Shown here in pieces: positions 28,503 through 50,491 of a DNA stretch of 64,000 bases; positions within the stretch are counted from its first letter, which is position 1, and each line of letters opens with the position of its first letter. The position numbers were made by a program, and so were the translations under genes. The notes beneath the pieces were generated by a model. It worked only from the letters and a program-made list of their open reading frames with translations. It searched no databases and was not told the origin of the DNA. Where the stretch lies: assembly GCF_041248615.1 (NCBI RefSeq), contig NZ_CP158426.1; one strand, written 5' to 3'. The DNA is from Escherichia coli. GTDB lineage: Bacteria > Pseudomonadota > Gammaproteobacteria > Enterobacterales > Enterobacteriaceae.

Positions 28503-29631
28503 CAGCAGCGAAGAAAAAACAGAGAAACCCTCGGCGCAAAAGCTGCGTAAAGCGCGTGAAGAGGGGCAACTGCCGCGCTCGAAGGATATGGGGCTGGCAG
28601 CGAGCCTGTTTGCGGCGTTTGTGGTGATCTCCAGCAGCTTCCCGTGGTATGCCGATTTTGTGCGCGAGAGTTTTATCAGCGTGCATCAGTACGCGCAGGA
28701 GATTAATAACCCGCAGGTGATCGGTCAGTTTCTGCGCCACCACCTGTTAATTCTCGGCAAGTTTATCCTTACGTTGCTGCCGATGCCCGCCGCCGCGCTG
28801 CTCTCTTCGCTGGTGCCGGGCGGCTGGCTGTTTCTGCCGAAAAAAATCCTCCCGGATTTCAGCAAAATTAGCCCGTTAAAAGGCATTGGGCGTCTGTTTT
28901 CCAGTGAACATCTGGCGGAAACGGGAAAGATGACGGTGAAGTCTGCCGTGGTGCTGGTGATGCTGTGGGTAAGCCTGCGCAATAACTTTGCCGCCTTTCT
29001 CGGCCTGCAGGCGCTGCCGTTCAAACTGGCGATGAATGACGGTTTGTCGCTCTACGCCAGCGTGATGCGCAACTTTGTCATCCTGTTTATTTTCTTTGCG
29101 CTTCTCGACGTGCCGCTGGCGAAAGCCCTGTTCACCAAAGGGCTGAAGATGACCAAACAAGAACTGAAAGAAGAGTACAAAAATCAGGAAGGCAAGCCGG
29201 AAGTGAAGGCGCGCGTGCGGCGGCTGCAACGGCAGCTGGCGATGGGGCAAATTCGCAAAGTGGTGCCAAAGGCCAACGTGGTGATCACCAACCCGACCCA
29301 CTACGCCGTGGCGTTGCAGTATGACCAGTCGCGTGCCGCCGCGCCGTTTGTGGTGGCGAAAGGCACCGATGAAATCGCCCTCTATATTCGCCAGGTCGCT
29401 GCTGAAAGTCAGGTGGAAGTGGTCGAGTTCCCGCGGCTGGCGCGCTCGGTTTACTACACCACTCAGGTGAATCAGCAAATTCCTTTTCAGCTTTACCGGG
29501 CTATCGCCCACGTTCTGACCTACGTCCTGCAAATGAAACACTGGCGCGAGGGCGCACAGCCGCGCCCGGCCCTGAACAGACATATTTCCATTCCCAAAGA
29601 GGTGCTTAAACTGGATGGCGAAAACAACTAA
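28492..29631 (+). CDS. lfhB: Flagellar export apparatus protein FlhB
   Basis: 379 aa; N-terminus EKTEKPSAQKLRKAREEGQLPRS typical of FlhB; NPTH autocleavage motif present. Confidence 0.9.
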   Translation: MADSSSEEKTEKPSAQKLRKAREEGQLPRSKDMGLAASLFAAFVVISSSFPWYADFVRESFISVHQYAQEINNPQVIGQFLRHHLLILGKFILTLLPMPAAALLSSLVPGGWLFLPKKILPDFSKISPLKGIGRLFSSEHLAETGKMTVKSAVVLVMLWVSLRNNFAAFLGLQALPFKLAMNDGLSLYASVMRNFVILFIFFALLDVPLAKALFTKGLKMTKQELKEEYKNQEGKPEVKARVRRLQRQLAMGQIRKVVPKANVVITNPTHYAVALQYDQSRAAAPFVVAKGTDEIALYIRQVAAESQVEVVEFPRLARSVYYTTQVNQQIPFQLYRAIAHVLTYVLQMKHWREGAQPRPALNRHISIPKEVLKLDGENN

Positions 29632-31708
29632 ATCGTTCCTCGCGCTGCTGCGCGGCGGCAATCTCGGCGTGCCGCTGGTGATCCTGTGTATTCTGGCGAT
29701 GGTTATTCTGCCGCTGCCGCCTGCGTTGCTGGATATTCTGTTCACCTTCAACATTGTGCTGGCGGTGATGGTGCTGCTGGTGGCCGTGTCGGCGAAACGT
29801 CCGCTGGAATTCAGCCTGTTCCCGACCATTTTGCTGATCACCACCTTAATGCGCCTGACGCTCAACGTTGCTTCTACGCGCGTGGTGTTGCTGCACGGGC
29901 ATCTCGGCGCGGGCGCGGCGGGTAAGGTGATTGAGTCATTTGGTCAGGTGGTGATTGGCGGCAACTTTGTCGTCGGCTTCGTGGTGTTTATCATCCTGAT
30001 GATCATCAACTTTATCGTCGTCACCAAAGGGGCCGAGCGTATTTCCGAGGTTTCTGCCCGCTTTACCCTGGACGCGATGCCCGGCAAACAGATGGCGATT
30101 GACGCCGATCTTAACGCCGGGTTGATCAACCAGGCGCAGGCGCAAACCCGGCGTAAAGATGTTGCCAGCGAGGCCGATTTCTACGGCGCAATGGACGGGG
30201 CATCGAAGTTTGTGCGCGGGGATGCCATCGCCGGGATGATGATTCTGGCGATCAACCTGATCGGCGGCGTCTGTATCGGGATCTTCAAATACAACCTGAG
30301 CGCCGATGCCGCCTTCCAGCAATATGTGCTGATGACCATCGGCGACGGCCTGGTGGCGCAGATCCCGTCCCTGCTGCTTTCCACCGCGGCGGCGATTATC
30401 GTCACCCGCGTCAGCGACAACGGCGATATTGCCCATGACGTGCGTAACCAGTTGCTGGCAAGCCCGTCGGTGCTCTACACCGCCACCGGGATCATGTTTG
30501 TGCTGGCGGTTGTGCCGGGGATGCCGCATCTGCCGTTTTTGCTGTTCAGCGCCCTGCTTGGTTTTACCGGCTGGCGGATGAGCAAACGCCCGCAGGCGGC
30601 GGAGGCGGAAGAGAAAAGCCTCGAAACACTGACCCGAACCATCACCGAAACCAGCGAGCAACAGGTCAGTTGGGAAACTATTCCGCTGATCGAGCCCATC
30701 AGCTTAAGCCTCGGCTACAAGCTGGTGGCGCTGGTGGACAAAGCACAGGGTAACCCGCTCACCCAGCGGATTCGCGGCGTGCGGCAGGTGATTTCTGACG
30801 GTAACGGCGTGCTGCTGCCGGAGATCCGCATTCGGGAAAACTTCCGCCTCAAGCCCAGCCAGTACGCCATTTTCATCAATGGCATTAAGGCTGATGAAGC
30901 GGATATTCCGGCGGATAAACTGATGGCCCTGCCCTCCAGCGAAACCTACGGCGAGATTGACGGCGTGCTGGGGAACGACCCGGCGTACGGGATGCCGGTG
31001 ACCTGGATCCAGCCCGCGCAGAAAGCGAAAGCGCTGAATATGGGGTATCAGGTGATCGACAGCGCCAGCGTGATTGCCACCCATGTGAACAAGATTGTCC
31101 GCAGCTATATTCCTGATTTGTTTAACTATGATGACATCACGCAGTTGCATAACCGTTTGTCGTCGATGGCACCGCGCCTGGCGGAAGATTTGAGCGCGGC
31201 GCTCAATTACAGCCAATTGCTGAAAGTGTACCGGGCGCTGCTGACCGAAGGCGTTTCCCTGCGCGATATTGTCACCATCGCCACCGTGCTGGTCGCCAGT
31301 AGCACAGTGACCAAAGATCATATCCTGCTGGCGGCCGATGTGCGCCTGGCATTGCGGCGCAGCATTACCCATCCGTTCGTTCGCAAGCAGGAGCTGACGG
31401 TGTATACGCTGAATAATGAGCTGGAAAATCTGCTCACCAACGTGGTGAATCAGGCGCAACAGGGCGGGAAAGTGATGCTCGACAGCGTGCCGGTCGATCC
31501 GAATATGCTCAACCAGTTCCAGAGTACGATGCCGCAGGTAAAAGAGCAGATGAAAGCGGCGGGGAAAGACCCGGTGCTGCTGGTGCCGCCGCAGTTGCGT
31601 CCTTTGCTGGCGCGTTATGCAAGGTTGTTTGCGCCGGGGCTGCATGTGCTGTCGTATAACGAAGTGCCGGACGAGCTGGAGTTGAAGATTATGGGGGCGT
31701 TGAGTTGA
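29615..31708 (+). CDS. lfhA: Flagellar export apparatus protein FlhA
   Basis: 697 aa; FlhA N-terminal TM domain and FHIPEP motif region. Confidence 0.95.
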   Translation: MAKTTKSFLALLRGGNLGVPLVILCILAMVILPLPPALLDILFTFNIVLAVMVLLVAVSAKRPLEFSLFPTILLITTLMRLTLNVASTRVVLLHGHLGAGAAGKVIESFGQVVIGGNFVVGFVVFIILMIINFIVVTKGAERISEVSARFTLDAMPGKQMAIDADLNAGLINQAQAQTRRKDVASEADFYGAMDGASKFVRGDAIAGMMILAINLIGGVCIGIFKYNLSADAAFQQYVLMTIGDGLVAQIPSLLLSTAAAIIVTRVSDNGDIAHDVRNQLLASPSVLYTATGIMFVLAVVPGMPHLPFLLFSALLGFTGWRMSKRPQAAEAEEKSLETLTRTITETSEQQVSWETIPLIEPISLSLGYKLVALVDKAQGNPLTQRIRGVRQVISDGNGVLLPEIRIRENFRLKPSQYAIFINGIKADEADIPADKLMALPSSETYGEIDGVLGNDPAYGMPVTWIQPAQKAKALNMGYQVIDSASVIATHVNKIVRSYIPDLFNYDDITQLHNRLSSMAPRLAEDLSAALNYSQLLKVYRALLTEGVSLRDIVTIATVLVASSTVTKDHILLAADVRLALRRSITHPFVRKQELTVYTLNNELENLLTNVVNQAQQGGKVMLDSVPVDPNMLNQFQSTMPQVKEQMKAAGKDPVLLVPPQLRPLLARYARLFAPGLHVLSYNEVPDELELKIMGALS

Positions 31709-31734
31709 TGGGGGAGACTATATAAGGTCTCGGA

Positions 31735-31764
31735 CTGTCCCCTCGCCCCTTTGGGGAGAGGGAG
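31735..31764. repeat. GC-rich imperfect palindromic intergenic repeat (copy B, inverted relative to copy A)
   Basis: ctgtcccctcgcccctttggggagagggag downstream of lfhA. Confidence 0.35.
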
Positions 31765-31805
31765 AAAAACGTGTACGACTTTAACTTTTTCGCAGTATTG
31801 CCGTC

Positions 31806-32564
31806 CTACAAAATCGTCTCTTCCGTCAAAATCCTGCGCGCGCCTAAAAAATGATCCTGCCAGAAAGGTTCAGCTAACCGACTTACCCGAATGGTTTCCC
31901 CGGTGCGCGGCGACTCGATAAACTGACCGTCTCCCAGATACACGCCCATATGATCGGCAATCTCGCGGCTGTGGATATGGAAAAACAGCAAATCTCCCCG
32001 GCGCAGGTCGTTGTTCGCCACAATCGTTGCCCGATGGTAGTGATACATCTCATTGGCCGTGCGCGGGAGCTTCGCCTCGAGGATCTTGTTGTAGGCATAA
32101 AAAACCAACCCGCTACAGTCGAAGCCTTGATCGGGCCGCGTGCCGCCCCAGACGTAAGGCTTGCCAAGCTGCTGCTCCAGGCGGTGAATCGCCACTTCGG
32201 TGATGTTGTGTAGATGGTCGCTGCTTAAGAAATGGTTGTTCTCCGCCAGCGCCTGCCAGCGTCTGTCACTTGCCTTGAGCGGCGCAGGAAACCATTCTGG
32301 ATGCTGTTTTATCTGTTCGCGGTTGTGCTGGCGCAGCGCCTTTCTGCTTTCGGCATTGCCTTCCACAATATAGCTGGCCTGTTTTTTCAGATGGGTTTGG
32401 TACTGTTTTAATAAACGCGCACGGTTTTGCATCCGCTGGCGGGCGGCGTAGCTGAAAGAGATATGTGATGTGGTGGCGCTGGCGAGTAAAGGGAGCAAAA
32501 CGCATAACGAAAACACGCCTGGATGCAGAAATCTGCCGTGAAAGAACGAAGACATGAAGGACAT
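31806..32564 (-). CDS. yafL: NlpC/P60 family peptidase YafL
   Basis: 252 aa; catalytic Cys context GFDCSGLV; near-identical to E. coli YafL as recalled. Confidence 0.85.
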   Translation of the reverse strand: MSFMSSFFHGRFLHPGVFSLCVLLPLLASATTSHISFSYAARQRMQNRARLLKQYQTHLKKQASYIVEGNAESRKALRQHNREQIKQHPEWFPAPLKASDRRWQALAENNHFLSSDHLHNITEVAIHRLEQQLGKPYVWGGTRPDQGFDCSGLVFYAYNKILEAKLPRTANEMYHYHRATIVANNDLRRGDLLFFHIHSREIADHMGVYLGDGQFIESPRTGETIRVSRLAEPFWQDHFLGARRILTEETIL

Positions 32565-32855
32565 AAACCGGCTGAATGAAGGTGAGAATTTTAAAAGACC
32601 AGAGGAGTAAACGGGATTATTAATTGCTTATTTGCATATTACTATTGAGGTTTCATAATCTTAGGAAATAAATGATACATGCGCTTTTCGGACTAATGAA
32701 AACTGCCCCTGTGCTAAATTTGTAAACCCTGCGCCGACAGGCTTGCGTAAAACTCTTTTGGTGATAATGTGAGCCTTCCAAATCCAGACTATTCCGATTT
32801 GGGATCCATTTTGCCGTCCTGGCGTGTGTAACCGTTTTATCAAGGAATAAGCAGT

Positions 32856-33596
32856 ATGCGTAAAATCGCATTAATTCTTGCGATGTTGTTGATCCCGTGC
32901 GTTTCGTTTGCCGGTTTGCTGGGCAGCAGTAGCTCGACCACGCCAGTGAGCAAAGAGTATAAGCAGCAGTTGATGGGATCCCCTGTCTACATCCAGATCT
33001 TCAAGGAAGAACGTACGCTCGATCTCTACGTCAAAATGGGCGAGCAATATCAACTGCTCGACAGCTATAAAATCTGTAAATATTCCGGCGGCTTGGGGCC
33101 AAAACAGCGTCAGGGCGATTTCAAAAGCCCGGAAGGGTTTTATAGCGTCCAGCGTAATCAGTTAAAACCAGACAGCCGTTACTACAAAGCGATTAATATT
33201 GGATTCCCCAATGCCTATGACCGTGCGCATGGTTATGAAGGGAAATACCTGATGATCCACGGTGATTGTGTTTCCATCGGCTGCTACGCAATGACCAATC
33301 AGGGTATTGATGAGATCTTCCAGTTCGTTACTGGTGCGCTGGTGTTTGGTCAGCCGAGCGTGCAAGTGAGTATTTACCCGTTCCGCATGACCGACGCCAA
33401 TATGAAGCGCCATAAATATTCCAACTTTAAGGACTTCTGGGAGCAGCTGAAGCCAGGTTACGACTACTTTGAGCAAACCCGTAAGCCACCGACCGTTTCT
33501 GTGGTCAATGGTCGTTACGTGGTCAGCAAGCCGTTAAGCCACGAAGTTGTGCAACCACAGCTGGCATCAAACTACACGCTCCCCGAGGCAAAATAA
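32856..33596 (+). CDS. yafK: L,D-transpeptidase family protein YafK
   Basis: 246 aa; YkuD-type [14 protein letters not shown]; matches E. coli YafK; 30-bp convergent overlap with yafJ as in K-12. Confidence 0.9.
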
Positions 33597-34334: not shown

Positions 34335-34411
34335 GGGTAACCTCCACAACAGCGGGAGCACATGGCCCCCGGCGAAGATTGATTTAAGAATTTTCAGGCC
34401 GGATGCGGCGT

Positions 34412-35168
<757 letters not shown>

Positions 35169-35272
35169 ATCAGCATACTTGTCCTTAGCCTTCTGCAGTG
35201 ACAGCTGGTAGTACAGCGTGCTTCTGGCCAGCCCTGCAGCCTTTAACAGGTCAGACTGGCAGTGTCCGCACC

Positions 35273-35803
35273 TCAGGCTCCGGATGACTTTCGTTTTTTC
35301 TCCAGCTCCTGGCGCTTTTTTTCCAGGAGATGCTCCTGCATGGCTTTCAGATATGCATTTTCTGCGCGAAGATAACGCAGCTCATTCTTCATCTCTTCCG
35401 GCGTCATGTTTGCCTCGTTTTCATGGGTATCATCAGAACGGGTCATGCTTTTCTCCTTCCTGCGCCTGATAAAGGCCTCATTACCAGATTTGCGGTAGCC
35501 TTTTATCCAGTTTTTAACCGTGTTGTGGCTGGGAATGTTAAACCGGGCAGCTACCCGGGGTAGAGACTCAGAATGCCCGAGAGCATAAAGAACCACGCAA
35601 AGTTTATCTTCAGGAGAATAGCTACGCTTGTGTCTGCAATCCAGTGCCCGAGGACCGTGAAGAAGAAAAAGATTAATCCAGTGTGAGAGGCTGGTGTGAG
35701 AAAGTTGAAAGAGTTTTGCCGTAGAAATGATGCCTGCATGACCAGCCAGGTAATGATTTACAGCGGCAAGTTTTACTTCAAATGAATGTTTCATAAACTG
35801 CAC
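35273..35803 (-). CDS. IS3-family transposase OrfA (HTH/leucine zipper)
   Basis: 176 aa; HTH and C-terminal leucine zipper typical of IS3 OrfA. Confidence 0.85.
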   Translation of the reverse strand: MQFMKHSFEVKLAAVNHYLAGHAGIISTAKLFQLSHTSLSHWINLFLLHGPRALDCRHKRSYSPEDKLCVVLYALGHSESLPRVAARFNIPSHNTVKNWIKGYRKSGNEAFIRRRKEKSMTRSDDTHENEANMTPEEMKNELRYLRAENAYLKAMQEHLLEKKRQELEKKRKSSGA

Positions 35804-35874
35804 CTTCAGATGTCAGATTATGTCCAACATTTGGGGTGCAGTTCAGTAAACGTCTTATCCGGCCTACGCCAGAC

Positions 35875-36692: not shown

Positions 36693-39137
36693 ATGATGAT
36701 TTTGAGTATTCTCGCTACGGTTGTCCTGCTCGGCGCGTTGTTCTATCACCGCGTGAGCTTATTTATCAGCAGTCTGATTTTGCTCGCCTGGACAGCCGCC
36801 CTCGGCGTTGCTGGTCTGTGGTCGGCGTGGGTACTGGTGCCTCTGGCCATTATCCTCGTGCCATTTAACCTTACGCCTATGCGTAAGTCGATGATTTCCG
36901 CGCCGGTATTTCGCGGTTTCCGTAAGGTGATGCCGCCGATGTCGCGCACTGAGAAAGAAGCGATTGATGCGGGCACCACCTGGTGGGAAGGCGATTTGTT
37001 CCAGGGCAAGCCGGACTGGAAAAAGCTGCATAACTATCCGCAGCCGCGCCTGACCGCAGAAGAGCAAGCGTTTCTCGACGGCCCGGTAGAAGAAGCCTGC
37101 CGGATGGCGAATGATTTCCAGATTACTCATGAGCTGGCTGATTTGCCGCCGGAGTTGTGGGCGTACCTTAAAGAGCATCGTTTCTTCGCGATGATCATCA
37201 AAAAAGAGTACGGCGGGCTGGAGTTCTCGGCTTATGCCCAGTCTCGCGTGCTGCAAAAACTCTCCGGCGTGAGCGGGATCCTGGCGATTACCGTCGGCGT
37301 GCCAAACTCATTAGGCCCGGGTGAGCTACTGCAACATTACGGCACTGACGAGCAGAAAGATCACTATCTGCCGCGTCTGGCGCGTGGTCAGGAAATCCCT
37401 TGCTTTGCACTGACCAGCCCGGAAGCGGGTTCCGATGCGGGCGCGATTCCGGATACCGGGATTGTCTGCATGGGCGAATGGCTGGGCCAGCAGGTGCTGG
37501 GCATGCGTCTGACCTGGAACAAGCGTTACATTACGCTGGCACCGATTGCGACTGTGCTTGGCCTGGCGTTTAAACTCTCCGACCCGGAAAAACTGCTGGG
37601 TGGCGCAGAAGATTTAGGTATTACCTGTGCGCTGATCCCGACCACCACGCCGGGCGTGGAAATTGGTCGTCGCCATTTCCCGCTGAACGTACCGTTCCAG
37701 AACGGACCGACGCGCGGTAAAGATGTCTTCGTACCGATCGATTACATTATCGGCGGACCAAAAATGGCCGGGCAAGGCTGGCGGATGCTGGTGGAGTGCC
37801 TCTCGGTAGGCCGCGGTATCACCCTGCCTTCCAACTCAACCGGCGGCGTGAAATCGGTAGCGCTGGCAACGGGTGCGTATGCGCACATCCGCCGTCAGTT
37901 CAAAATCTCTATTGGTAAGATGGAAGGGATTGAAGAGCCGCTGGCGCGTATTGCCGGAAACGCTTATGTAATGGATGCTGCGGCATCGCTGATTACCTAC
38001 GGCATTATGCTCGGTGAAAAACCTGCCGTGCTGTCGGCTATCGTTAAGTATCACTGTACCCACCGCGGGCAGCAGTCGATTATTGATGCGATGGATATCA
38101 CTGGTGGTAAAGGCATTATGCTCGGGCAAAGCAACTTCCTGGCCCGTGCTTACCAGGGCGCACCGATTGCCATCACCGTTGAAGGGGCCAACATTCTGAC
38201 CCGTAGCATGATGATCTTCGGTCAGGGGGCGATTCGTTGCCATCCGTACGTGCTGGAAGAGATGGAAGCGGCGAAGAACAATGACGTAAACGCGTTCGAT
38301 AAACTGCTGTTCAAACATATCGGTCACGTCGGTAGCAACAAAGTTCGCAGCTTCTGGCTGGGCCTGACGCGCGGTTTAACCAGCAGCACGCCAACCGGCG
38401 ATGCCACTAAACGCTACTATCAGCACCTGAACCGCCTGAGCGCCAACCTCGCCCTGCTTTCTGATGTCTCGATGGCTGTGCTGGGCGGCAGCCTGAAACG
38501 TCGCGAGCGTATCTCGGCACGTCTGGGGGATATTTTAAGCCAGCTTTACCTCGCCTCTGCCGTTCTGAAGCGTTATGACGACGAAGGCCGTAATGAAGCC
38601 GACCTGCCGCTGGTGCACTGGGGCGTACAGGATGCGCTGTATCAGGCAGAACAGGCGATGGACGATTTACTGCAAAACTTCCCGAACCGCGTGGTTGCCG
38701 GGCTGCTGAATGTGGTGATCTTCCCGACCGGACGTCATTATCTGGCACCGTCTGACAAGCTGGATCATAAAGTGGCGAAGATTTTACAAGTGCCGAACGC
38801 CACTCGTTCACGTATTGGTCGCGGTCAGTACCTGACGCCAAGCGAGCATAACCCGGTTGGTTTACTGGAAGAGGCGCTGGTGGATGTGATTGCCGCCGAC
38901 CCGATTCATCAGCGGATCTGTAAAGAGCTGGGTAAAAATCTGCCATTTACCCGTCTGGATGAACTGGCGCACAACGCGCTGGCGAAGGGGCTGATTGATA
39001 AAGATGAAGCCGCTATTCTGGTGAAAGCTGAAGAAAGCCGTCTGCGCAGTATTAACGTTGATGACTTTGATCCGGAAGAGCTGGCGACGAAGCCGGTAAA
39101 GTTGCCGGAGAAAGTGCGGAAAGTTGAAGCCGCGTAA
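36693..39137 (+). CDS. fadE: Acyl-CoA dehydrogenase FadE
   Basis: 814 aa from [20 protein letters not shown], matching E. coli FadE. Confidence 0.95.
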
Positions 39138-39144
39138 TTGAATA

Positions 39145-39170
39145 ACGGAGCCGAAAGGCTCCGTTTCTTT
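39145..39170 (+). terminator. Rho-independent terminator after fadE (may also serve convergent ivy)
   Basis: acggagcc-gaaa-ggctccgt hairpin followed by TTCTTT. Confidence 0.6.
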
Positions 39171-39179
39171 ATCCGCTAA

Positions 39180-39653
39180 TTATTTAAAATTAAAGCCATC
39201 CGGATGGTTTTCCAGGCTGCCGGTCAACGCCGCGAACAGCACCGTTTTACCATCAATCGAAAGCGCATCGTTCACATTCAACCAGGTGAGTTTCTCTTGC
39301 GACGTTTTCTCATCAATAGTCGAGAATAGCCCCGTCATCTGATTAGATTTCGCGGACCACATCACAGCGATACGTTGCGAGCCACAATCATGCGGTTTGC
39401 ACGCGCTCATCACCTGATACGTCTCATCTCCCAACGTTACGGTTTGTGCGGGAGTATAAGTACCGCCTTTCATCACCCATGCAGGTAGCTTATGCCCTTG
39501 CACCATCTGATTAAACGCAGCTTTGGTGGTTTCGCCCTTTGCAAGGCTGCTAATGGTTAAATCATCCTGCGCCATTGCACTGGTGGCGATGACCAGAGCG
39601 GCAACTGTCGTTATTGCCTTAAACATCATTCCTCCCGAGCTTATCCTGCCCAT
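39180..39653 (-). CDS. ivy: Inhibitor of vertebrate lysozyme Ivy
   Basis: 157 aa; MGRISSGGMMFKAITTVAALVIATSAMA signal and CKPHDC motif, matches E. coli Ivy. Confidence 0.95.
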   Translation of the reverse strand: MGRISSGGMMFKAITTVAALVIATSAMAQDDLTISSLAKGETTKAAFNQMVQGHKLPAWVMKGGTYTPAQTVTLGDETYQVMSACKPHDCGSQRIAVMWSAKSNQMTGLFSTIDEKTSQEKLTWLNVNDALSIDGKTVLFAALTGSLENHPDGFNFK

Positions 39654-39806
39654 GTTATTAACCTCCTAAAGCCTGGCGATAACACGATAATTTGCAAATC
39701 AGATATTTCCAATATCAGCATTTGTTATCAATTTATTCTGCGCTAAGGCAACTGCCTGATAAGGTGTTAGAGTTATAAAACCCTTCGCATAAAGGAGTTG
39801 TACACC

Positions 39807-40577
39807 GTGTCTGGTTTGAAGATTACGCTTTTACAGCAACCACTGGTGTGGATGGATGGTCCTGCCAACCTGCGTCATTTTGATCGTCAACTGGAAGGTA
39901 TTACCGGACGCGATGTGATCGTTCTACCGGAGATGTTTACCAGCGGCTTTGCCATGGAAGCGGCAGCTTCGTCGCTAGCACAAGATGACGTAGTGAACTG
40001 GATGACAGCCAAAGCGCAGCAGTGCAATGCGCTGATTGCAGGCAGTGTTGCATTACAAACGGAGTCTGGTTCGGTTAACCGCTTTTTGCTGGTTGAGCCG
40101 GGCGGCACGGTACATTTTTATGATAAGCGTCATCTGTTCCGCATGGCAGATGAGCATCTACATTATAAAGCGGGCAATGCGCGAGTGATTGTGGAATGGC
40201 GCGGCTGGCGTATTTTGCCGCTGGTGTGCTACGACTTACGTTTTCCGGTGTGGTCGCGCAATCTCAACGATTATGACCTCGCCATCTACGTTGCCAACTG
40301 GCCTGCTCCGCGCTCTCTGCACTGGCAGGCATTGCTGACGGCCCGCGCGATTGAGAATCAGGCGTATGTGGCGGGATGCAATCGCGTCGGCAGCGATGGC
40401 AACGGCTGCCATTATCGCGGTGACAGCCGGGTGATTAATCCACAGGGCGAGATTATCGCTACTGCCGACGCGCATCAGGCAACGCGCATTGATGCGGAGC
40501 TGTCGATGGTGGCATTGCGGGAATATAGAGAAAAGTTTCCGGCATGGCGGGATGCGGATGAGTTTAGGTTGTGGTGA
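39807..40577 (+). CDS. yafV: Nitrilase-superfamily omega-amidase YafV
   Basis: Start set to GTG 39807 (AAGGAG 9 nt upstream); catalytic Cys context LPLVCYDLRFP; matches E. coli YafV. Confidence 0.9.
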   Translation: MSGLKITLLQQPLVWMDGPANLRHFDRQLEGITGRDVIVLPEMFTSGFAMEAAASSLAQDDVVNWMTAKAQQCNALIAGSVALQTESGSVNRFLLVEPGGTVHFYDKRHLFRMADEHLHYKAGNARVIVEWRGWRILPLVCYDLRFPVWSRNLNDYDLAIYVANWPAPRSLHWQALLTARAIENQAYVAGCNRVGSDGNGCHYRGDSRVINPQGEIIATADAHQATRIDAELSMVALREYREKFPAWRDADEFRLW

Positions 40578-40671
40578 GTGGGTGTTGTGTTTAGGGGCGG
40601 GGTAAGACTACGGGTCAGGGCAAGATTACGAAAGCCCGGAGCCTGTCCATCATTCTGTGTAAATGCCTTTC

Positions 40672-40990
40672 TCAGAAGTGACCGTCAAGGCGGTCACCGA
40701 ACTCGATAATAAAGCGACTCTTCCCTATCCGCCAGTCCTGAAGTGGCATCGTCCATTTTTGCGACGCTGACTGGAAAGCCAGCCACACCACTTTTTTCAC
40801 CGACTCATCTGTCGGGAACACTTTCCGTTTCTTTATCGCATGTGTGATGATGCTATTCAGCGATTCGATTGCGTTAGTGGTGTAGATAACCTTGCGGATC
40901 GCCTCCGGGTACACGAAGAATGTGGCAACATTCGGCCAGTTTGCCCGCCAGCTGCGACTTATCTGCGGGTACCGTGCATCCCATTCCTTC
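40672..40990 (-). pseudogene. IS256-family (mutator-type) transposase, C-terminal fragment only
   Basis: Encodes ..ANWPNVATFFVYPEAIRKVIYTTNAIESLN...KWTMPLQDWR.. which matches only the last ~105 aa of IS256-like transposases. Confidence 0.6.
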
Positions 40991-41001
40991 CCAGGGAAAG
41001 A

Positions 41002-42119
41002 TTACGAAAGCCCGCTCCCCGCAAGGACTGACGCCAGATAGTTTCTGTCCATGGCTGCTTTTCGCATCTTACGTCTTAACCCTGCCTTGAATACCTTATC
41101 ATTCGTCAAAATATTAATAGCGATGTGCCGTATCCCTGAAAATAATTCTGCTGCATTTCCTCTTCTTATTTTGCAGTCGTCTTCATTCATTACCACGTCC
41201 AGACGCCAGTGCAGCTTATTCTCCACGTGCCAGTGGTTTCGGATTGCTGTGGCGAACTTCTCTGCGGTTAAATCAGCAGAACTAATATAATATCTGACCG
41301 TCATTTCTGGCTCTTTCTTTTGTTCTGCTATTATTGACCGAAAGGAGACTGCCACGCATAATTTCTTCAGACCTTTCCATTCAAACGTGAAATCAATAAG
41401 TTCATCAGGGACATCGCAAACAATGTGAAGACGGATTTCTTCTCTGCCGTGACTCTTTTCACTCATTGCGTAACTGTCATGCTCTGGATTATTTAATTCT
41501 TTCAGCGGAAATTCTCGAAGGCTTTATTTAGCCGCCCCTGGTTTCCTTTTACAGCGAATAAATAATCACCTCCCTGTTTTTGTATCTTCTCTGCAATATC
41601 TTTCTGGCAACCCATCGCATCAGTTGTGATGATTTTTCCTTTAATATCCAGCATGTTAAGAAGTTCTGGGATAGCTGTAATTTCATTGGATTTCTCATCC
41701 GTCCTGATCTGTCCGATGACCAGACTGTGCATTGTTGAGAACGCACTAATGACATGAATCGCTCCCTTGCGGCGACTCTTGTCATAAGAATGCCGGAGTG
41801 TTTTTCCATCAATTGCGATGACGTCTTTATCATCTGAAGTATGGCAATCTCGCATCCAGTTAATAAAGCACTCGTGAAATTTTGCAGGACTGATACAGGA
41901 TACAACTCTGGCGATGGTATCGTGAACAGGAATACCATTTTCAAAATCACCGTATTGTTTTAAAAAATCGAGATGTGTTTCCCCAAAATCCTCTATATCT
42001 TCCCAACCTTCCGCACCCGAAATAACAGCACAAATAGTCAACAGTAGAATATCCGATAATTTATGTTCCACTTTCCAGGCTTGTCTGTAATCGGGGATAA
42101 TAGAAATATGCCCCATCAA
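41002..42119 (-). pseudogene. ISAs1-family (H-repeat-associated) transposase, frameshifted
   Basis: Two ORFs (41502-42119 and 41002-41466) cover N- and C-terminal parts; reading continues in another frame across 41466-41505 ([15 protein letters not shown]), showing a small deletion near KAFE|NF. Confidence 0.75.
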
Positions 42120-42306
42120 TTTTTTAAGTTCTATTTTGTTCTCCTTAATTATGTAAGGAGTATTTGATCATGTATAAGCAATAAAAAACAGCTTTAGGTA
42201 ATGAGGAATATCTCAATTTTTAAGCATAAAATGCGAATTGTTTAGTACAAAAAAGCAGCGTTACGTGATCTTTCCCTGCACTTCACCCTAACTTTAATTT
42301 AACTTC

Positions 42307-42346
42307 AAGAAGTATTAAGGCCTCAATAGCGAACTTAATACTTCTT
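42307..42346 (-). terminator. AT-rich hairpin downstream of Rhs immunity gene (weak terminator candidate)
   Basis: aagaagtattaag-N14-cttaatacttctt perfect 13-bp inverted repeat. Confidence 0.3.
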
Positions 42347-42354
42347 AAAGAATA

Positions 42355-42732
42355 TCACTCCTGACCAAAATCTTTCCACACTAATGCATGAGACTTTGAT
42401 TTATCACCCAAAAATTTACTTACATCTTTCCAAAGTAAAGAATTGCTATCGGTCGCAGTGACTATTGCCTCTATAAGCCCTGTAGCTACAACTGTGGCCA
42501 ATTCATCATCAATCGAGACCATACCATCTTCGACATGTTTAAATATTTTTTCTCTTTCAATATCACCCATTTCATAAAAATTTTTTACAATCGTTTTTCC
42601 AATCTGAGAGAACAACATAACCACCGGTGGAGTTTCTGGATGCCAGTATTCATTAGCTAATGAGACTGTCTCAGACAAAACAGTGGAAAACGATGCCATT
42701 TTTTCTATATAATTAGCAATATATTGGTTCAT
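42355..42732 (-). CDS. Putative immunity protein for the Rhs C-terminal toxin
   Basis: 125 aa AT-rich ORF immediately downstream of the rhs stop; family not recognised. Confidence 0.55.
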   Translation of the reverse strand: MNQYIANYIEKMASFSTVLSETVSLANEYWHPETPPVVMLFSQIGKTIVKNFYEMGDIEREKIFKHVEDGMVSIDDELATVVATGLIEAIVTATDSNSLLWKDVSKFLGDKSKSHALVWKDFGQE

Positions 42733-45700
42733 TACTTGCCTCCCAAAGCATTCTGTAAATCCTGAAGAACGTTTTCTGCTGCTGCTCGATCCCCTGGAGA
42801 TGCTGTTGGATTCTTATCCAACCAATCCTGTAAAGCCCTTGTATAATCCTGTGCTTTCAATACATGTCCTCTACCACCAACTTTTTCACCTGTGGCCAAT
42901 TCATAACGAACAGCATCTGCTGTGCTTCCACTTCCTACTTTTGCATTTGGCCGATAAAGATCGTCTATAATATTTTTCAAATTTGAATCTGTAACGTCAG
43001 GTTTTCCCATCTTCTGTCGCAATTCATCTTTATACCGTTCATGCTGCATACGATCTCTTGCGCTATTCTCATCTTCTGGTCCCCATCCTCCCGGGCTTCC
43101 CGTACTGCCACCACCCAGGCAGTTCTTCTCTTCCTCCGTCAAATCCTTCCCGACATTTGGATTCTCTTTTGATGAATCATCATTTCCAAACACGCTGGAA
43201 AAAGCACCATAGGGATCTCGCCAGAATTCCATTTGACTTTGTGCATTTAATAATTCGGCTTCACCCTGCATCTCCATACTTTTCTCAATCGCGTCCCCAA
43301 CAGCCTCGCGATTGTTGTATATTATTATACCACCACCAATAACCACCGTACCGACTGCCGCACCGACTAACATCCCCGGAGGGCCTCCTACCGAACCGAT
43401 CTCTGTACCTACTTCAGAACCAGTTCCCATGGCAGTTAATGCTCCTGCGCCCAACGCCGCACTTAATCCCAGCGGATCCAGCCGTTGCACCGGGTTCAGT
43501 GGATACGCATACAGGTTCCATCCCCCCTTCAGCCCAATCGGATCCTGGGTGATATACCTCCCCTGTAGCGGGTCATAGTACCGGTGACGGTTGTAGTACA
43601 GCCCCGACTCCTCATCATACTGCTGCCCCGGCAGACGGAGTGACTGTTGAAGGTGCTGCGTGCTTTCCTCTCCCAGCAGGTTTCCCCACTCGTCATACTC
43701 CCCGCGCCACGCCGTTTCCCCTTCCGGGCTGATAAGCGCCTGCGGCAGCCCACGGTGGTCACAGTGGTAAAGATGAAGTTTCCTCTCCGGGATGTATTCC
43801 GCCTCCAGTTGCGCCGCCATCTGTTCCGCCGTCAACCCACACTGTGCAAGCCACTGCTGGCTTTCTTCACTCACGCTGCCCTGCCGCAGTTCCCGCTCCA
43901 GCCTCCCCAGCATCACCGCCAGCTCCGCCGGTAGCGTCACACCCGTGTCCTCCTGCAACACCTCCGCCAGGCTACGGTGCCGCGCCTTCGCCTGTTCGCC
44001 ATTCTCTGTTTCGATTCTCAGGAGCGGCGTGAAGCTCCCCGGCTGGTATACCGTCTGGATACGCGTGGTGTCGGTCTGTACCGTCGTCAGCCTGTCGCCG
44101 TCCCACCCGTACCAGGTCACCTCCGGTTTACGCGACAGCGACATCCACCCCGTCAGGTCACGCTCCCGCCGCCACACCCGTTTTCCCGTCCGGCGGCCCA
44201 GCGGGTCATAGAGGTAGCGGCTCTCCACCTGTGGCTCGCCGTGCTGTATCCGCGTGTAGAACACCAGGCGGTGCTGGCTGTCGTAATGGTAGTGGTGCGT
44301 CCGCTCGTCGTGCATCCGTATCACCCCTTCCGGGATACGGTCCGTCTTCTCCGCCAGCCTGCCGTATTCATCGTAGCGGTAGACATAGTGCGCATCTTCC
44401 GTGATGCGGTTATCCGGCCACGCCGTGAAGGTGCTGTCCGGGTGCAGTTCCGGGTCCGGCAGCCGGTTTCCTGCCGGGTCCGTCGCATACGGGATATCAA
44501 TGTCCAGGTTCGCTGCCGTGGTGTGGACGCCCGTCAGCCTTCCCGTGTCGCTGTAACGGTACTCCCGGCTCTCCTGCGGGCCGCTGATGCGAATTAGCTG
44601 TCCGTTGTCGTTCCAGTCGTAGTCACGGTCAAGCTGCGGAAGGTTCAGGTGCCTGCTCCGGAGCTGGCCGCTGGTATTCCAGGCGGTGGCAAGCTCATAT
44701 GCCTCCCCGCCGAAGCTGCGGGCCGTCTCACGGTGCAGCCGGTCCCGCGTGTACTCGACCAGTGGCGTACCACCCAGCTTCATTCCCGCAAGATAACCGC
44801 TGCCATACGTCAGCCACTCCACCGGCGGCAGACCGTCCGGCTCCTGACGGGTCGCCAGCCCCTGTTCGCTGTACGCGTGCTTCGTCTCATGCTCCCACAG
44901 CATCTCCCCCGTCTCCGGGTTCTCCACCGTCTGCCGTTCGCCCGTCAGGCGGCCTTTATCGTCGTGGCCGTAGTGGACCGCCACACGGTGGCCTTCGCTG
45001 ATATGGCTGATTTCTGTCAGCCAGCCGTGCTCATCATACTGCCACTGCTCCGCCGGGTCGCCGTTCACCGTCCGGTGCGTGATGCGGTCCGACGCATCGT
45101 AATGCCAGAGGGTGATAAGCCCCTCATCTTCACTCTGCGTGAGTTTTCCGGTCAGGTCATAGTGGTAACGTTGCGTCCGCCCGTCAAAGCCGCGCTGCTC
45201 CGTCAGCCTGTCCACCGGGTCATACCGGAACGTGGACTGGCTGCCGTTCTCGTTGGTCAGCACGGTGGTGCGACCGGCGGCGTCATACCCCATGCTGCGC
45301 GTCAGTCCGCCTTCCGTCACACTCACCGGACGCCCGCGTTTATCATATTCGATGGTGCTGCGTTTACCGTCCGGTGATATCGTCGCTGTCAGGTCGCCTG
45401 CGGTGCTGTACTCATAACGGGTTTCACGCCCCTGCGCATCCTTCTGACTGACCAGTTGGCCACGCGGGTTATAACTGCTGTAAGTGCTGATGCCTTCTTC
45501 CCGGTGAACGGCGATTTGTTGACCGTACCGGTCATACTCATACCGCGTCGTGTACCCCGAGCAGTCCGTAAACGCCTGAAGCTGACCGTACCGGTTTCGC
45601 GTTATTCTCCGCATCACCCCGGTTCCGTCTTCCACCGCGCCGGGCAGGCTACTGCGGGGGGAGTCATAAAACCAGCGCGTAATGTTACCGTTGCGCGAGA

Positions 45701-47231
45701 TCTCTTCCGCCAGCCTGCCCTGACGGTCATATTTCCGGCTGCTGCGCAGCCCGTCCGGGTACGTCACTGACGTCAGTTGCAACTGGTTGTTGTAACCATA
45801 CCGTACCGTCCTGCCGTCCGGAAGTATCACTGAAGTCAGCTTTCCAGACGCCATATGCAGCCGATACTCCGTCCGCCGTCCCGCCGCATCCGTCTGCGCC
45901 TTCAGCCTCCCCGCCTCATCATACTCGCTGCGGGTGATGCTCCCGTCCGCATGTTCCTTCTTCACCACCCGCTTCAGGCCACCTTCGCCTTCCGTGTACA
46001 GCACCTCCCGCCTGTTCAGGCTGTCCGTGATGATTACCCGGCTCTCTCCGTACTCAAAGCGGTAGTCCAGCCCCTCCGGGTTGACCTGCTCCGTCACCCG
46101 GCCGGTATCATCATACCGGTAGCGGCTCTCCGGCCTCCCCGCATAATGGTGCGCCACCATCCGCCCGGCGTGCGCCACATCATAAGTAACCCCGCGCACC
46201 TGCGTCCCGCTGCGGTCATACACCGCCCGCAGTTCTCCGCTGGCCGTGTACGTGTAGCGCGCCAGCGGCGCAGTCGGCTGTTCATCCGGGTATGCCGGGT
46301 CGTGTGTCAGCCACACCGCCTCCAGCCGGATACCGTTATCGGCACCGTATTCTGTACCGACGGGCAGCGTATCGGGGAAAACCTGAGAAGAGGAAACAGA
46401 ACGGGGACCGGCAGGGGAAGATAAGGAAGACTCGCGCTGTTTACGGGACGCTTCCGCCCGCTGTGACTGTGTGGTCAGCGCCAGGTGAAAACAGCGGCCC
46501 GCGCCGTCCGTCACCCTGGTGATTTCACCAGCCAGTTCGCCTGCGGCCTCGCGGTGGAAAGTCAGTGAACGCCCGAAGCCGTCCACCACGCCCGTCAGCA
46601 CCCGGTATGCGGGTGGCTCCGGCGGCAACACCTCGTCCACCCCCGGCACCCGCTCCGGCCAGCCGAGTACCAGCCACTGCCCGGTTGTGCTGACAGCCAT
46701 CATATAGGTGTGTGGACTCAGGCGGACCGCTTCCGGCAACGCCCGCCAGAGCCGGGCCAGCGGGTGGCCTTTCTGCTGTTTCAGCACCCCGCCCCGCGCC
46801 AGCCAGAACGACTCGCTGCGGCTGTAGCTTATCTCGCCGGGAAACAGCGGCTCAAAGTGAATGCTCCTGCCGCCGCTGTCGTTGAGTATCAGGCCTTCAT
46901 CGCGTATCTGTAAGCGGATATCGAAGGGGGCTTTCCAGCCGGGACCAAACACCCCCACCGGCGCGGGCGTCCTGGTCCGGTAGCTGCTGTAGGCGCGGAA
47001 AAGAACAAACGGCAGCGGGCCGGACAGTGCCAGGTCGGTTTCAGCAGGCAGCACCTTCGCTCCCAGCAGCGGGTTTACCGGATTACCCTTCTGCTCCTCT
47101 ATCGGGCTGTTGGGACATACCGAACAGGCCACACCGGTTGGCGCACCTATCAGCACCCCTGCTGAACCCTGCACAATATCCAGTCCCTTGCGGGTCATGT
47201 CACCCTGCCGCGCCGCCGGTTTTCCACCCAT
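42732..47231 (-). CDS. rhs: PAAR-domain Rhs repeat protein with polymorphic C-terminal toxin domain (T6SS effector)
   Basis: 1499 aa; N-terminal [15 protein letters not shown] motif, YD repeats, DPxGL demarcation (RLDPLGL) then ~243-aa tip; tip (42735-43463) is markedly AT-rich relative to the core. Confidence 0.9.
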
Positions 47232-47306
47232 GAATCAATTCCTTCTGCTTTTAATATGGTTTATCTGGTCACTGCACCAGTTCCGTTTTAATTTTTTGCA
47301 CCTGAC

Positions 47307-49448
47307 TCAAAATTGCCGCATATCCGGCATTCCGGGGGGTAAATCTTTCGGCACAGGCGCATCCGGTACAGGTTGTGTGGCACCACAGTTCCAGTTAATC
47401 ACCGGCGCATCACCGTTCACATCCGACTCTCCTTCCAGATGAATGTGCGTACCATTGAGAAATATGCTTCCGTCCTTCGTCAGCACCAACCTTGCCTTAC
47501 CGCAGCAGAGTTCCAGATGCTCACCGGCAGAATAAACTGCTGTTTGTCCGGTGTTTTCCTTCATCGTCTTGCCCACCGAGAAGGTGACGTTATTCCCTAC
47601 ATTGACGCTGTAGCCCATTCCCACCATCAGTGATTTATGCAGCCCTACCTGTGAGGACTGCAACAACGCCACCGAGGTATTCATGATGCCGCCTACCGTC
47701 GTCTGGTAAGCCACGCCCACCGTCAGCGCACGAATGATCCCCACCTTTTCAACCTGGTTTGAACCCACTTTGACAATCTGGTTGCTGCCTACCGTTTCCA
47801 CCTGGTTGACACCAACCGTCTGTATCTGATTAACGCCAATGTTCTGGATCTGGTTATTGGTAACGGTGATCGCCTGGTTGTTACCTATTTTTTCGGCATG
47901 GTTGTTTATCACATCCGTGGTGCGGTTATTCAGCACCTCGGTGTTCATGTTCTTCTGCGCGTGGATGTAGACCTGTTCTTTCCCTGTCGCATCGTCAAAC
48001 TTCAGTTCATTAAACCCGCTGCCCTTATAGGTTTTCGAACGAATGGTCATCTGCGTCTTTGTTCCCGGCAGGCTGCCGGGGGTGCGGTTTTCCTGGTGGT
48101 AGGTACGCCCCATAATAATCGGCTGGTCCGGATCGCCGTTGAGGAAGTCCACAATGACTTCCTGACCCACACGCGGTATCGCCAGGTTGCCAAAGCCGGT
48201 GCCTGCCCACGCCTGTGCCACACGGATCCAGCATGAACTGTCCTGGTTTGACGGGTTATAGCGGTCCCAGTTAAATTTCACCCGCACGCGGCCATGTTCA
48301 TCACAGAAGATTTCTTCTCCTGCCGGTCCCGTCACGACGGCGCTCTGCGGGCCGTCCACCAGCGGTTTCAGCAACGGCTGTGGCCGCCATGTTCTGTCTG
48401 CCGGTATTACCGCAAAGTGGTTATTCAGCGTGGTACCTGAACCCCTGCGTCCCGGCACCGCCTGCGGCTGCTCGCCGTGCAGTTCACTTGCCACCACCTG
48501 CCATTCCCGGTTCAGGTTCGCCTGCGGATGCCCCGTCAGCGCAATTCGCCGTCCCGGCCATATCTCCGGCGAACGGCTTGTTCCGCGCGCCACTTCTGCG
48601 TTGTTTCGCCAGCCATCCATCTGCCAGCAGGCAAAGTTCTGCCCGTGGGCACCCTTGAAACGTCCGGGGTAGTCATACACTTCATACTGTGTGCGCTGGT
48701 AATCCTGGTGCTGGCCTTCCTGATCAAAACGCCCTGCCCAGCCGGGTCGTTTAAAGGTGTAGTCTTTGGTCACCACGGAAGATGGGCGGATTTGTGCGCT
48801 GTAGAGGAACTGGCTGATGCATAGGGTGCTCACCTCGGTACGGGTGTTCGGATTCCAGGGGATCTCAAAGGACTCCGGCAGATAACGCACGGTGTCGCAC
48901 AGGACCAGGCTCTGGTCGGTACTTTTTTGCGCGTGCTCCTCATAAAAGAAGATGCCTTCCTCCGCCGCCATCCGGCACAGGAAATCGTAATCGGTTTCGC
49001 CGTACTGGACACAAAACTCACGGGAAGGATGCGGCTCGCTGAACAGCGGACTCCACTCGGTCACCCCGTTTTCTTTCAGGATCGTCGCGAGTATGCTTTC
49101 GATGTCCTCATTCTGGAAGATACGGAAGTTCTGGCGCAGCCCTGTGCGCCACAGCGGTGGGCACACCTTCATGCTGTACAGCATCTGGTTTTTGTCGTTC
49201 TCCCCCAGTTCAAACCAGGTCACCACACCTTTCACCCGGCGCTGTACGTCATCGCCCTGCCATACCGTCAGGTAGGCCATTTTGTCCAGCACCTGCGCAA
49301 ATTCAAGGGAGAGAAACTGCTGGCTGACCAGAGAGAGATCGAGGGAAAAGAGCGAAGAGAGTGACTGGTTCAGATGAAAGGAGACCACCGCAAACGCGTC
49401 CGGTGGCAGGCCGTCCACTTCCAGCGTGAAACGTAATCCGGTTGACAT
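47307..49448 (-). CDS. vgrG: T6SS spike protein VgrG (TssI)
   Basis: 713 aa; gp27/gp5-like VgrG pattern, position between hcp and PAAR-rhs; GGAGG RBS. Confidence 0.9.
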   Translation of the reverse strand: MSTGLRFTLEVDGLPPDAFAVVSFHLNQSLSSLFSLDLSLVSQQFLSLEFAQVLDKMAYLTVWQGDDVQRRVKGVVTWFELGENDKNQMLYSMKVCPPLWRTGLRQNFRIFQNEDIESILATILKENGVTEWSPLFSEPHPSREFCVQYGETDYDFLCRMAAEEGIFFYEEHAQKSTDQSLVLCDTVRYLPESFEIPWNPNTRTEVSTLCISQFLYSAQIRPSSVVTKDYTFKRPGWAGRFDQEGQHQDYQRTQYEVYDYPGRFKGAHGQNFACWQMDGWRNNAEVARGTSRSPEIWPGRRIALTGHPQANLNREWQVVASELHGEQPQAVPGRRGSGTTLNNHFAVIPADRTWRPQPLLKPLVDGPQSAVVTGPAGEEIFCDEHGRVRVKFNWDRYNPSNQDSSCWIRVAQAWAGTGFGNLAIPRVGQEVIVDFLNGDPDQPIIMGRTYHQENRTPGSLPGTKTQMTIRSKTYKGSGFNELKFDDATGKEQVYIHAQKNMNTEVLNNRTTDVINNHAEKIGNNQAITVTNNQIQNIGVNQIQTVGVNQVETVGSNQIVKVGSNQVEKVGIIRALTVGVAYQTTVGGIMNTSVALLQSSQVGLHKSLMVGMGYSVNVGNNVTFSVGKTMKENTGQTAVYSAGEHLELCCGKARLVLTKDGSIFLNGTHIHLEGESDVNGDAPVINWNCGATQPVPDAPVPKDLPPGMPDMRQF

Positions 49449-49607
49449 AGCAACCTCCGGGTTTAAGGAAAAACAGACAGTTCGCTGTTAAAGCGGCTGT
49501 AACAGTACAGTGTTACGCTTGCGTTCAGGCACGCTACCGCCGAAGTTTCCGGCATCCGCCATCTCCCGTGAACGTAACCCCTTACTGACAACCTTTCTTT
49601 TTACGGC

Positions 49608-49647
49608 GTAATACAAAAACAGCATCCGGCCTAATAGCCGGATGCTG
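49608..49647 (-). terminator. Rho-independent terminator/attenuator just downstream of hcp
   Basis: GC-rich hairpin cagcatccggc-ctaata-gccggatgctg followed on the minus strand by TTTTTGTATT, about 10 nt after the hcp stop. Confidence 0.6.
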
Positions 49648-49657
49648 TTGGCTTAAC

Positions 49658-50176: not shown

Positions 50177-50474
50177 TTGTAAACTCCTTGTTAACGTGGT
50201 TAATTACTACTTACAATGACCTGCCGTTAATCCCAGACAGGCAGATGCAGCTCACTTCACGGAACCGCATCATTTTTCAGTATTTTTTACATACAAACCG
50301 AGCTAGAATTTACGGTTGTCGTAAAAACTATTTTTAAAATCATTAAATCTCTTATTCAGCAATAAGTTAATAATATATATCTGGATAACCATACCCAACT
50401 ATTCAAAGTCCGTATTGCCTCCATAAAATGGCCAAAGCTGAATCATGAATAAATATTGTATTTATCCTTTCTGA

Positions 50475-50491
50475 ATTATCATTTTGATAAT
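50475..50491. promoter_or_regulatory. Candidate Fur-like palindrome in T6SS divergent control region
   Basis: ATTATCATTTTGATAAT perfect palindrome containing GATAAT/ATTATC hexamers; spacing is non-canonical. Confidence 0.25.

Follow-up and report, generated by a model that had tools for sequence, protein, structure and literature searches.

The lfhA-yafL-yafK locus of an Escherichia coli with an undeleted Flag-2 cluster: a REP-free spacer at the rayT site and a dinJ-yafQ-less allele

The locus and its Flag-2 cluster

The DNA analysed is a stretch of 64,000 nucleotides (64 kb) from Escherichia coli, called the window below. The part of interest runs from lfhA, the last Flag-2 gene in the window, through yafL to yafK, and is composed of the following features.

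29615-31708, plus strand: lfhA, the Flag-2 FlhA homolog, 697 aa (open reading frame; RefSeq flhA, WP_001589733.1)
31709-31805: lfhA-yafL spacer, 97 bp, REP-free (sequence; REP and alignment comparisons)
31714-31731: hairpin GAGAC-N8-GTCTC, just past the lfhA stop codon (sequence; RNA fold)
31737-31762: apparently collapsed GC-rich palindrome GTCCCCTCGCCCC-TTT-GGGGAGAGGG (one exact site in the window)
31806-32564, minus strand: yafL, NlpC/P60 (C40 peptidase), 252 aa from the longest start (open reading frame; RefSeq WP_000093873.1, starting at 32555 instead of 32564)
32495-32715: allele-specific segment of the dinJ-yafQ-less haplotype (alignment; boundaries on the yafL side approximate)
32716-32855: 140 bp upstream of yafK, present in both alleles (100% identical to K-12)
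32856-33596, plus strand: yafK/dpaA (open reading frame; RefSeq WP_001225679.1, common to 042 and many others)

The two spacers, of 97 bp and of 291 bp (32565-32855), had been put at "about 100 bp" and "~290 bp" in a first-pass annotation made from the sequence alone, and the K-12 gene order given there agrees with the MG1655 annotation, dpaA(yafK)-yafQ-dinJ-yafL-rayT-lfhA'(pseudogene)-lafU'(pseudogene)-dinB. Its statement that rayT and dinJ-yafQ are missing from their K-12 positions holds over the whole window. Searched by tblastn, the whole 64 kb yielded no homolog of RayT, DinJ, YafQ or HicA/HicB (best E = 0.46; E > 2 for both DinJ and YafQ, E > 1 for HicA/HicB), and blastn with a word size of 7 recovers DNA of the K-12 slots just at 32716-32855, plus REP copies elsewhere. 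REPs lie at 3270, at 8329, and in the flanks of IS1397; none falls within 31709-32855. The same searches reveal no homolog hidden in the intergenic spaces, a possibility that the first-pass annotation had raised.

Over the 1,701 bp queried, the window and the E. coli NRZ14408 chromosome (NZ_LT599825.1) agree at every position (100%), with window positions equal to NZ_LT599825.1 positions minus 4,195,545. The haplotype is real yet ordinary, its exact sequence being present in many RefSeq genomes.

The window begins within Flag-2 and contains ~31.7 kb of the cluster, from lfgL to lfhA, while lafA ... lafU lie upstream of it. The lfhA gene is collinear with that of EAEC 042 over all 2094 bp, with the same length and 96.3% DNA identity, in keeping with the full-length lfhA and undeleted Flag-2 initially described; the K-12 gene aligns to it only from base 382 onward. 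In NZ_LT599825.1, Flag-2 clusters 1-3 are all annotated (lfhAB-lfiRQPNM-lafK-lfiEFGHIJ; lfgNMABCDEFGHIJKL; lafWZABCDEFSTU), and no gene is flagged as a pseudogene in the RefSeq annotation from lafU to lfhA (~40.5 kb). The description "intact Flag-2" is thus correct as annotated for that record, of which the window itself holds a part, and from its gene content Flag-2 in this strain is in the undeleted state. Such strains, having no annotated Flag-2 defect (lfgC is intact, unlike in 042), may be used for testing Flag-2 function. The flhB/lfhA-5' block is present in about 1,270 of 5,426 complete E. coli genomes (~23%), which agrees with the published count of Flag-2 in 24/100 E. coli, the remaining strains having the lfhA-lafU scar (PMC6993521). 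The last 600 bp of the window lfhA are identical to those of strain B19695, in which the slot is of the hicAB type. An apparent excess of conservation in the last ~85 bp of lfhA was dismissed, the mismatch counts there being like those elsewhere in the gene when other E. coli alleles are compared.

The closest described arrangement is the EAEC 042 Flag-2 locus (NC_017626.1), for which Ren et al. 2005 is cited as the reference study in PMC6993521. Both have a full-length lfhA next to yafL, the same order lfhAB-lfiRQPNM-lafK-lfiEFGHIJ and onward, and the same YafL, DpaA, and YafJ protein accessions; dinJ-yafQ is absent from both, and the 042 yafL-yafK spacer (300 bp) is the same allele. Unlike the window, however, 042 carries rayT with four to five flanking BIME units in the 1112 bp between lfhA and yafL, and its lfgC is frameshifted. 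The window alone of the two has an EcoRII/Dcm cargo between lfgA and lfgM and an IS1397 next to yafJ. K-12 MG1655 shares the backbone genes and their order as well as the 140 bp upstream of yafK, but differs by the lfhA-lafU deletion scar, by rayT with BIMEs (896 bp), by dinJ-yafQ, and by another YafL N-terminus.

Allele states of the two slots across E. coli

The dinJ-yafQ-less form of the yafL-yafK spacer occurs in 2082 of the 5,426 genomes (38%), EAEC 042 and ST131 included, and the 291-bp spacer is 96-100% identical to its counterparts in other genomes. Window positions 32495-32715, comprising the first ~23 codons of yafL and 151 bp of spacer, are without a K-12 counterpart. In their place K-12 has a different yafL 5' end, dinJ-yafQ (~836 bp), and 16-21 bp following yafQ; genomes with dinJ-yafQ align to the window from 32716 onward and again inside yafL. 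As judged from these alignments, the difference is a replacement of a segment that includes the first ~23-26 yafL codons, and not a clean insertion or deletion. YafL is 92.5% identical to the K-12 protein over residues ~12-252, with a different N-terminus, and the yafL-yafK region differs from that of 042 at 10 of 1295 positions (99.2% identity). A published reconstruction places yafQ-dinJ in every E/B1/A-lineage genome and, within the second main lineage (FGB2), in phylogroup F only, and treats the pair as a gain (PMC6896753); the absence of the pair here and in 042 fits this distribution. A degenerate-pattern scan of genome contigs for yafL gave 20 matches, 3 of them relevant, with E. albertii, E. 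fergusonii, and the E. coli representative not among them. Strain P276M, an 83% identity match considered as an outgroup, was rejected, its locus being of K-12 type and full of frameshifts.

The lfhA-yafL slot shows several states among the 5,426 complete genomes. The full-length 297-bp junction made of the lfhA end, the REP-free spacer, and the yafL end is found in 126 of them (2.3%). The majority (3575, or 66%) carry rayT, at 3589 places in 3582 records, so that rayT is effectively a single-copy gene. A hicAB module occupies the slot in 1367 genomes (25%), and yet another state is a REP array without a gene, as in GPEC606 (274 bp, three REP pairs). In the rayT alleles, REP/BIME arrays fill the slot, reaching the lfhA stop codon in K-12 or coming within ~15 bp of it in 042, and extending to the yafL stop codon. 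Beyond E. coli, rayT sits at the same locus in the cryptic-clade Escherichia MOD1-EC7003 and in Pseudocitrobacter faecalis; the occupied allele is therefore also old, both alleles being old, and the E. coli common ancestor may well have had rayT.

These counts make it scarcely conceivable that the missing content is an artefact of assembly or annotation, in which a REPtron or a toxin-antitoxin module would have been collapsed or missed. REP/BIME arrays are indeed hard to assemble, and one related record (TR01, see the last section) looks chimeric, but 126 genomes that were finished independently share the identical junction and 2082 share the dinJ-yafQ-less spacer, while a 598-bp query covering the junction and the yafL-yafK slot is 100% identical in four records.

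The E. coli without RAYT fall into at least three molecular classes, with hicAB, with REPs only, or with the REP-free spacer in the slot. Such strains make up about a third of complete genomes (PMC8049555) and have fewer REPINs (PMC8049555; bioRxiv 10.1101/2021.07.10.451892); in the corresponding studies (Park et al. 2021; Bertels & Rainey) the absence is treated as loss and the locus is not described. The window resembles these strains in having no rayT at its sole usual locus. Most of them prove here to have hicAB in the slot and some a REP-only scar, whereas the 2.3% with a REP-free spacer do not look like losses. The three classes bear on studies that model REP/REPIN decay from RAYT absence. 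Since rayT is almost always single-copy and at the lfhA-yafL locus, the genome to which the window belongs probably has no RAYT at all, in which case a smaller REP population would be expected, as reported for RAYT-less E. coli, with roughly 140 REP/REPIN copies in place of 200 predicted from Park et al.

Whether Flag-2 and the two slots vary together was assessed with chimeric queries. The first joined 2,228 bp of fliR-flhB-lfhA 5' (deleted in K-12) to the 297-bp junction and to random filler, so that with an E-value filter a coverage of 80% is possible only if both real parts are present and adjacent. The Flag-2 block or the REP-free junction is present in 1,379 genomes and both in 17, a lower bound because genomes with a long spacer (e.g., PCN033) are split into two alignments under this filter. 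With a second query, 39 of the 126 genomes were seen to combine the REP-free junction with the dinJ-yafQ-less allele. As every intact-Flag-2 example inspected carries the dinJ-yafQ-less allele, 39 is also the ceiling for REP-free junctions beside an intact lfhA. Most other sampled genomes with this junction have the K-12-type Flag-2 deletion and dinJ-yafQ. Under independence, ~29 genomes would combine Flag-2 with the REP-free spacer, against at least 17 and, on the assumption just given, at most 39 observed; there is no sign of an association between the two in the 5,426 genomes. The combinations seen in individual strains are listed here.

042: Flag-2 and rayT, dinJ-yafQ absent
Ecol_881 and HCM-24C-3: Flag-2 deletion (lafU/lfhA' scar), REP-free spacer, and dinJ-yafQ
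B19695: Flag-2 deletion and hicAB, dinJ-yafQ absent
A2: Flag-2 deletion and rayT, dinJ-yafQ absent
K-12: Flag-2 deletion scar, rayT, and dinJ-yafQ
PCN033: intact lfhA and long REP-free spacer, rayT and dinJ-yafQ absent

With most combinations of the three states seen directly, they are independent polymorphisms, and the K-12 arrangement (scar, rayT, and dinJ-yafQ) is one among many. An empty slot is no mark of the undeleted state, since most genomes with the REP-free spacer are Flag-2-deleted and 042 has rayT. Accordingly, the description of the locus as an undeleted Flag-2 with a different accessory content is sound, but the "therefore" that had tied one to the other is not, the accessory content being independent of the undeleted state.

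Publications already cover how common Flag-2 is and its deletion scar, the strains without RAYT, and how dinJ-yafQ is distributed over the phylogroups. What is added here is small: the census of slot occupants, the lack of linkage among the three states, and the interpretation of the REP-free spacer as a probable unoccupied allele with a collapsed palindrome. The practical value is limited; a variable segment that is often described from K-12 alone receives a correct reading.

Structure of the REP-free spacer

The 97-bp spacer is composed of the small hairpin, the GC-rich palindrome, and then ~43 bp up to the yafL stop codon. The first-pass annotation noted no REP-associated transposase between lfhA and yafL, which is right, but the slot is not simply empty, as it holds a conserved spacer with an apparently collapsed palindrome. 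It aligns with the spacers of Ecol_881, PCN033, MB53, and Pseudocitrobacter vendiensis, and these REP-free spacers are homologous. The GAGAC-N8-GTCTC hairpin is invariant among those aligned. The segment ~31719-31773 also matches dispersed copies of an intergenic repeat, which has a median of 4 sites in each genome, the melA-melR spacer being one of them. Small GC-rich palindromes dispersed between the genes of enterobacteria are named "Box C", a name to be taken as a lead only. The window palindrome is like them in being a GC-rich imperfect palindrome with a CCCTC...GAGGG motif and a few dispersed intergenic copies per genome; a literature search for the published Box C consensus returned unrelated papers and nothing useful.

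PCN033 and P. vendiensis share with the window a REP- and gene-free spacer whose sides are identical or nearly so, and in PCN033 lfhA is likewise intact, but unlike the window they keep the full palindrome. This long form measures ~161-163 bp, with a central 64-66 bp that is absent from the window, and makes up an almost perfect palindrome (about -91 kcal/mol, z = -10.5). On either side of the extra segment stands one of two 10-bp direct repeats, GGGGAGAGGG and GGGGCGAGGG; the window has retained the former and Ecol_881 the latter, a pattern that apparently fits slippage or collapse of an unstable palindrome.

The spacer is far better conserved than its flanks. Compared with Ecol_881, it differs at 1 of 97 positions, as against 76 mismatches per 1500 bp in the flanks, and MB53 is a further case of a homologous REP-free spacer set in diverged flanks. 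Against P. vendiensis, 54/54 and 42/43 positions are identical on either side of the extra 66 bp, although identity in lfhA and yafL is no more than 90-93%. In MB53, two tandem copies of the spacer enclose a relic of a diverged lfhA 3' end, which suggests that the spacer is native to the end of lfhA.

Such conservation may be taken to mean that the spacers hide something, either what is left of a degenerated rayT or dinJ-yafQ or else a functional substitute for them in the form of a small RNA or protein, a reading that we find highly doubtful. In its favor, the 97-bp spacer has its single mismatch despite a flank divergence of 5-9%, the 291-bp spacer is also well conserved (96-100%), and the minus strand of the former folds somewhat better than shuffled sequences (z = -2.6). 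However, tblastn with the five proteins and blastn at word size 7 detect nothing beyond the 140 bp shared with K-12. Rfam assigns neither spacer to a family, its one sub-threshold chance match being Antizyme_FSE (20 bits vs a cut-off of 40, E = 0.23). The 291 bp have mechanical open reading frames, which overlap with the start of yafK, and two divergent promoters suffice for the conservation of that spacer, in which a promoter scan gave 2 weak sites not above the shuffle background; the same scan gave nothing in the 97-bp spacer. By consensus scan, no canonical intrinsic terminator was found in either spacer, the hairpins of 31709-31805 being without a T-run on either strand. The 97-bp spacer would most likely have a structural role, with hairpins ending two convergent transcripts.

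Unoccupied allele or deletion of rayT

Taken together with the census, the anatomy of the spacer makes it likely that the haplotype consists of three freely recombining polymorphisms lying side by side, and that its REP-free spacer is an unoccupied allele and not the scar of a rayT deletion. Flag-2 is undeleted in this haplotype, and the spacer would be the native 3' flank of lfhA, with its small hairpin followed by the GC-rich palindromic repeat. It would represent the unoccupied form of a site that elsewhere holds rayT with its REP/BIME arrays (the "REPtron") or hicAB. The central ~64-66 bp of the repeat would have been lost, apparently by slippage between its two direct repeats, and the lineage would either have kept the REP-free allele or have regained it through homologous recombination; the yafL-yafK spacer is the dinJ-yafQ-less allele. 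The flanks are mosaic, the lfhA end being identical to that of the hicAB-type B19695 and yafL/yafK 99.2% identical to those of EAEC 042.

The alternative is a secondary loss, in which an ancestral rayT REPtron was removed from this lineage by recombination between flanking REPs, or by precise excision through RayT in the manner of IS200/IS605, leaving 97 bp. It agrees with the published view that some E. coli "have lost the RAYT gene" (bioRxiv 10.1101/2021.07.10.451892), with rayT being the majority state (66%) and standing at the same locus in cryptic-clade Escherichia and P. faecalis, and with its presence in 042, the closest relative of the right flank. Nevertheless, it seems unlikely. The spacer has neither REPs nor REP fragments, while the demonstrable deletion allele, that of GPEC606, retains three REP pairs. 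Moreover, REP-free spacers from diverged strains and from another genus line up collinearly with it, among them those with the complete palindrome, which a deletion could not have rebuilt. Finally, the K-12 and 042 arrays reach or nearly reach both stop codons, and an excision could not restore 97 bp from them. The direction of change, from an unoccupied or from an occupied site, is what we infer from these comparisons. In 042, a 9-base remnant, CCTTTGGGG, follows the lfhA stop codon and is suggestive only.

The REP-free spacer is also a candidate for the ancestral sequence at the rayT locus. In a stronger version, the GC-rich palindrome would be the target at which the enterobacterial rayT REPtron integrates, and the spacer would preserve that site as it was before integration, maintained in Escherichia and Pseudocitrobacter as a polymorphism that is old and either balanced or exchanged horizontally; this is a rather improbable proposal.

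A separate observation concerns the O157:H7 record TR01 (GCF_003722195.1), in which rayT appears inserted between flanks of the REP-free spacer. It was considered as proof of such an insertion and was then downgraded, as the assembly is probably chimeric. Between its rayT and that of ordinary O157 there are 0/498 mismatches, and its flanks are identical to those of the unrelated MB53 (yafL 0/750). An N stands beside the junction, which is absent from all other genomes, and ordinary O157 (Z1504) is without spacer flanks of the TR01 type. Should the TR01 allele be real, the REPtron would still be able to enter such an empty site as a unit, and TR01 would provide a natural before/after pair for the fixation of a "domesticated" RAYT at one locus.

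Flanks of the lfhA-yafL slot

The slot between lfhA and yafL, which holds rayT with REP/BIME arrays, hicAB, or a REP-free spacer depending on the strain, has flanks of different affinity in the window. The last 600 bp of lfhA (31109-31708) are identical to those of strain B19695, in which Flag-2 is deleted and hicAB is present, while the yafL side is nearest to EAEC 042 and not to B19695. By these sequence matches, the slot is a recombination breakpoint. Corresponding loci from other genomes are:

L014, Pseudocitrobacter faecalis, 2468-6053: lfhA-(rayT)-yafL block
L030, P. vendiensis, 1792-2926: lfhA-(rayT)-yafL block
L035, E. coli MB53, 2571-2891: REP-free spacer of 321 bp
L008, E. coli O157:H7 TR01, 2510-3328: apparently chimeric rayT locus

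In the two Pseudocitrobacter species, the block shows 90-94% identity to E. coli DNA, about as close as a cryptic Escherichia clade, and is not adjoined by yafK/yafJ in either. This suggests that yafL moves together with the Flag-2 end, as a block exchanged between genera. The slot carries rayT in one species and a REP-free spacer in the other. The MB53 spacer consists of two tandem copies of a hairpin-plus-palindrome unit, separated by what is left of the 3' end of a diverged lfhA (...GCTGGCATTGAAAATTATGGGAGCAGTGAGTTGA). In TR01, rayT is identical to that of ordinary O157, including the internal stop, and the flanks are identical to those of the unrelated strain MB53. The locus also has a garbled REP sequence, with an N adjoining the junction. 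It looks chimeric, and is an artefact of assembly or else a rare genuine insertion of the REPtron (rayT and its flanking REP/BIME arrays) into an empty site.

On the other side of yafL, its first ~23-26 codons (signal-peptide region; window 32495-32564) are wholly unlike between strains with and without dinJ-yafQ, YafL starting with MSFMSSFFHGRFLHPGVFSLCVLLPLLA... in the window and MSLPSIPSFVLSGLLLICLPFSSFA... in K-12. This toxin-antitoxin polymorphism therefore alters the YafL N-terminus and the promoter as well.

REPs and IS1397

3270-3299: perfect canonical REP, intergenic, within Flag-2
8329-8358: perfect canonical REP, intergenic, within Flag-2
34446-35803: IS1397, IS3 family (RefSeq annotation)

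The two intergenic REPs indicate that REPs colonised the Flag-2 cluster, even though the genome probably lacks rayT. Between yafJ and gmhA, a site occupied by a three-REP BIME in both K-12 and 042, IS1397 interrupts a REP loop in the window (34398-34413 and 35846-35867: GCCGGATGCGGCGTAA / IS / TAAACGTCTTATCCGGC, with TAA at either side). IS1397 has a reported target preference for REP loops, and this placement fits it.

Flag-2 and neighbouring cargo

9139-9570: lfgC (flgC homolog), intact
10915-13632: DNA cytosine methyltransferase and type II restriction endonuclease, between lfgA and lfgM, within Flag-2
~38800-52000: ISAs1-family transposase remnants, Rhs core protein, VgrG, Hcp and tssB/tssC, downstream of fadE/ivy/yafV (RefSeq annotation)

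The methyltransferase-endonuclease pair, which is absent from EAEC 042, is the EcoRII/Dcm cargo that 21 Flag-2 loci of Escherichia were reported to carry (PMC6993521). The lfgC gene is intact in the window but frameshifted in 042. The cluster may be functional, since none of its genes is flagged as a pseudogene in the matching RefSeq record (NZ_LT599825.1). Finally, a T6SS cluster borders the same region in the window and in 042, with different cargo.
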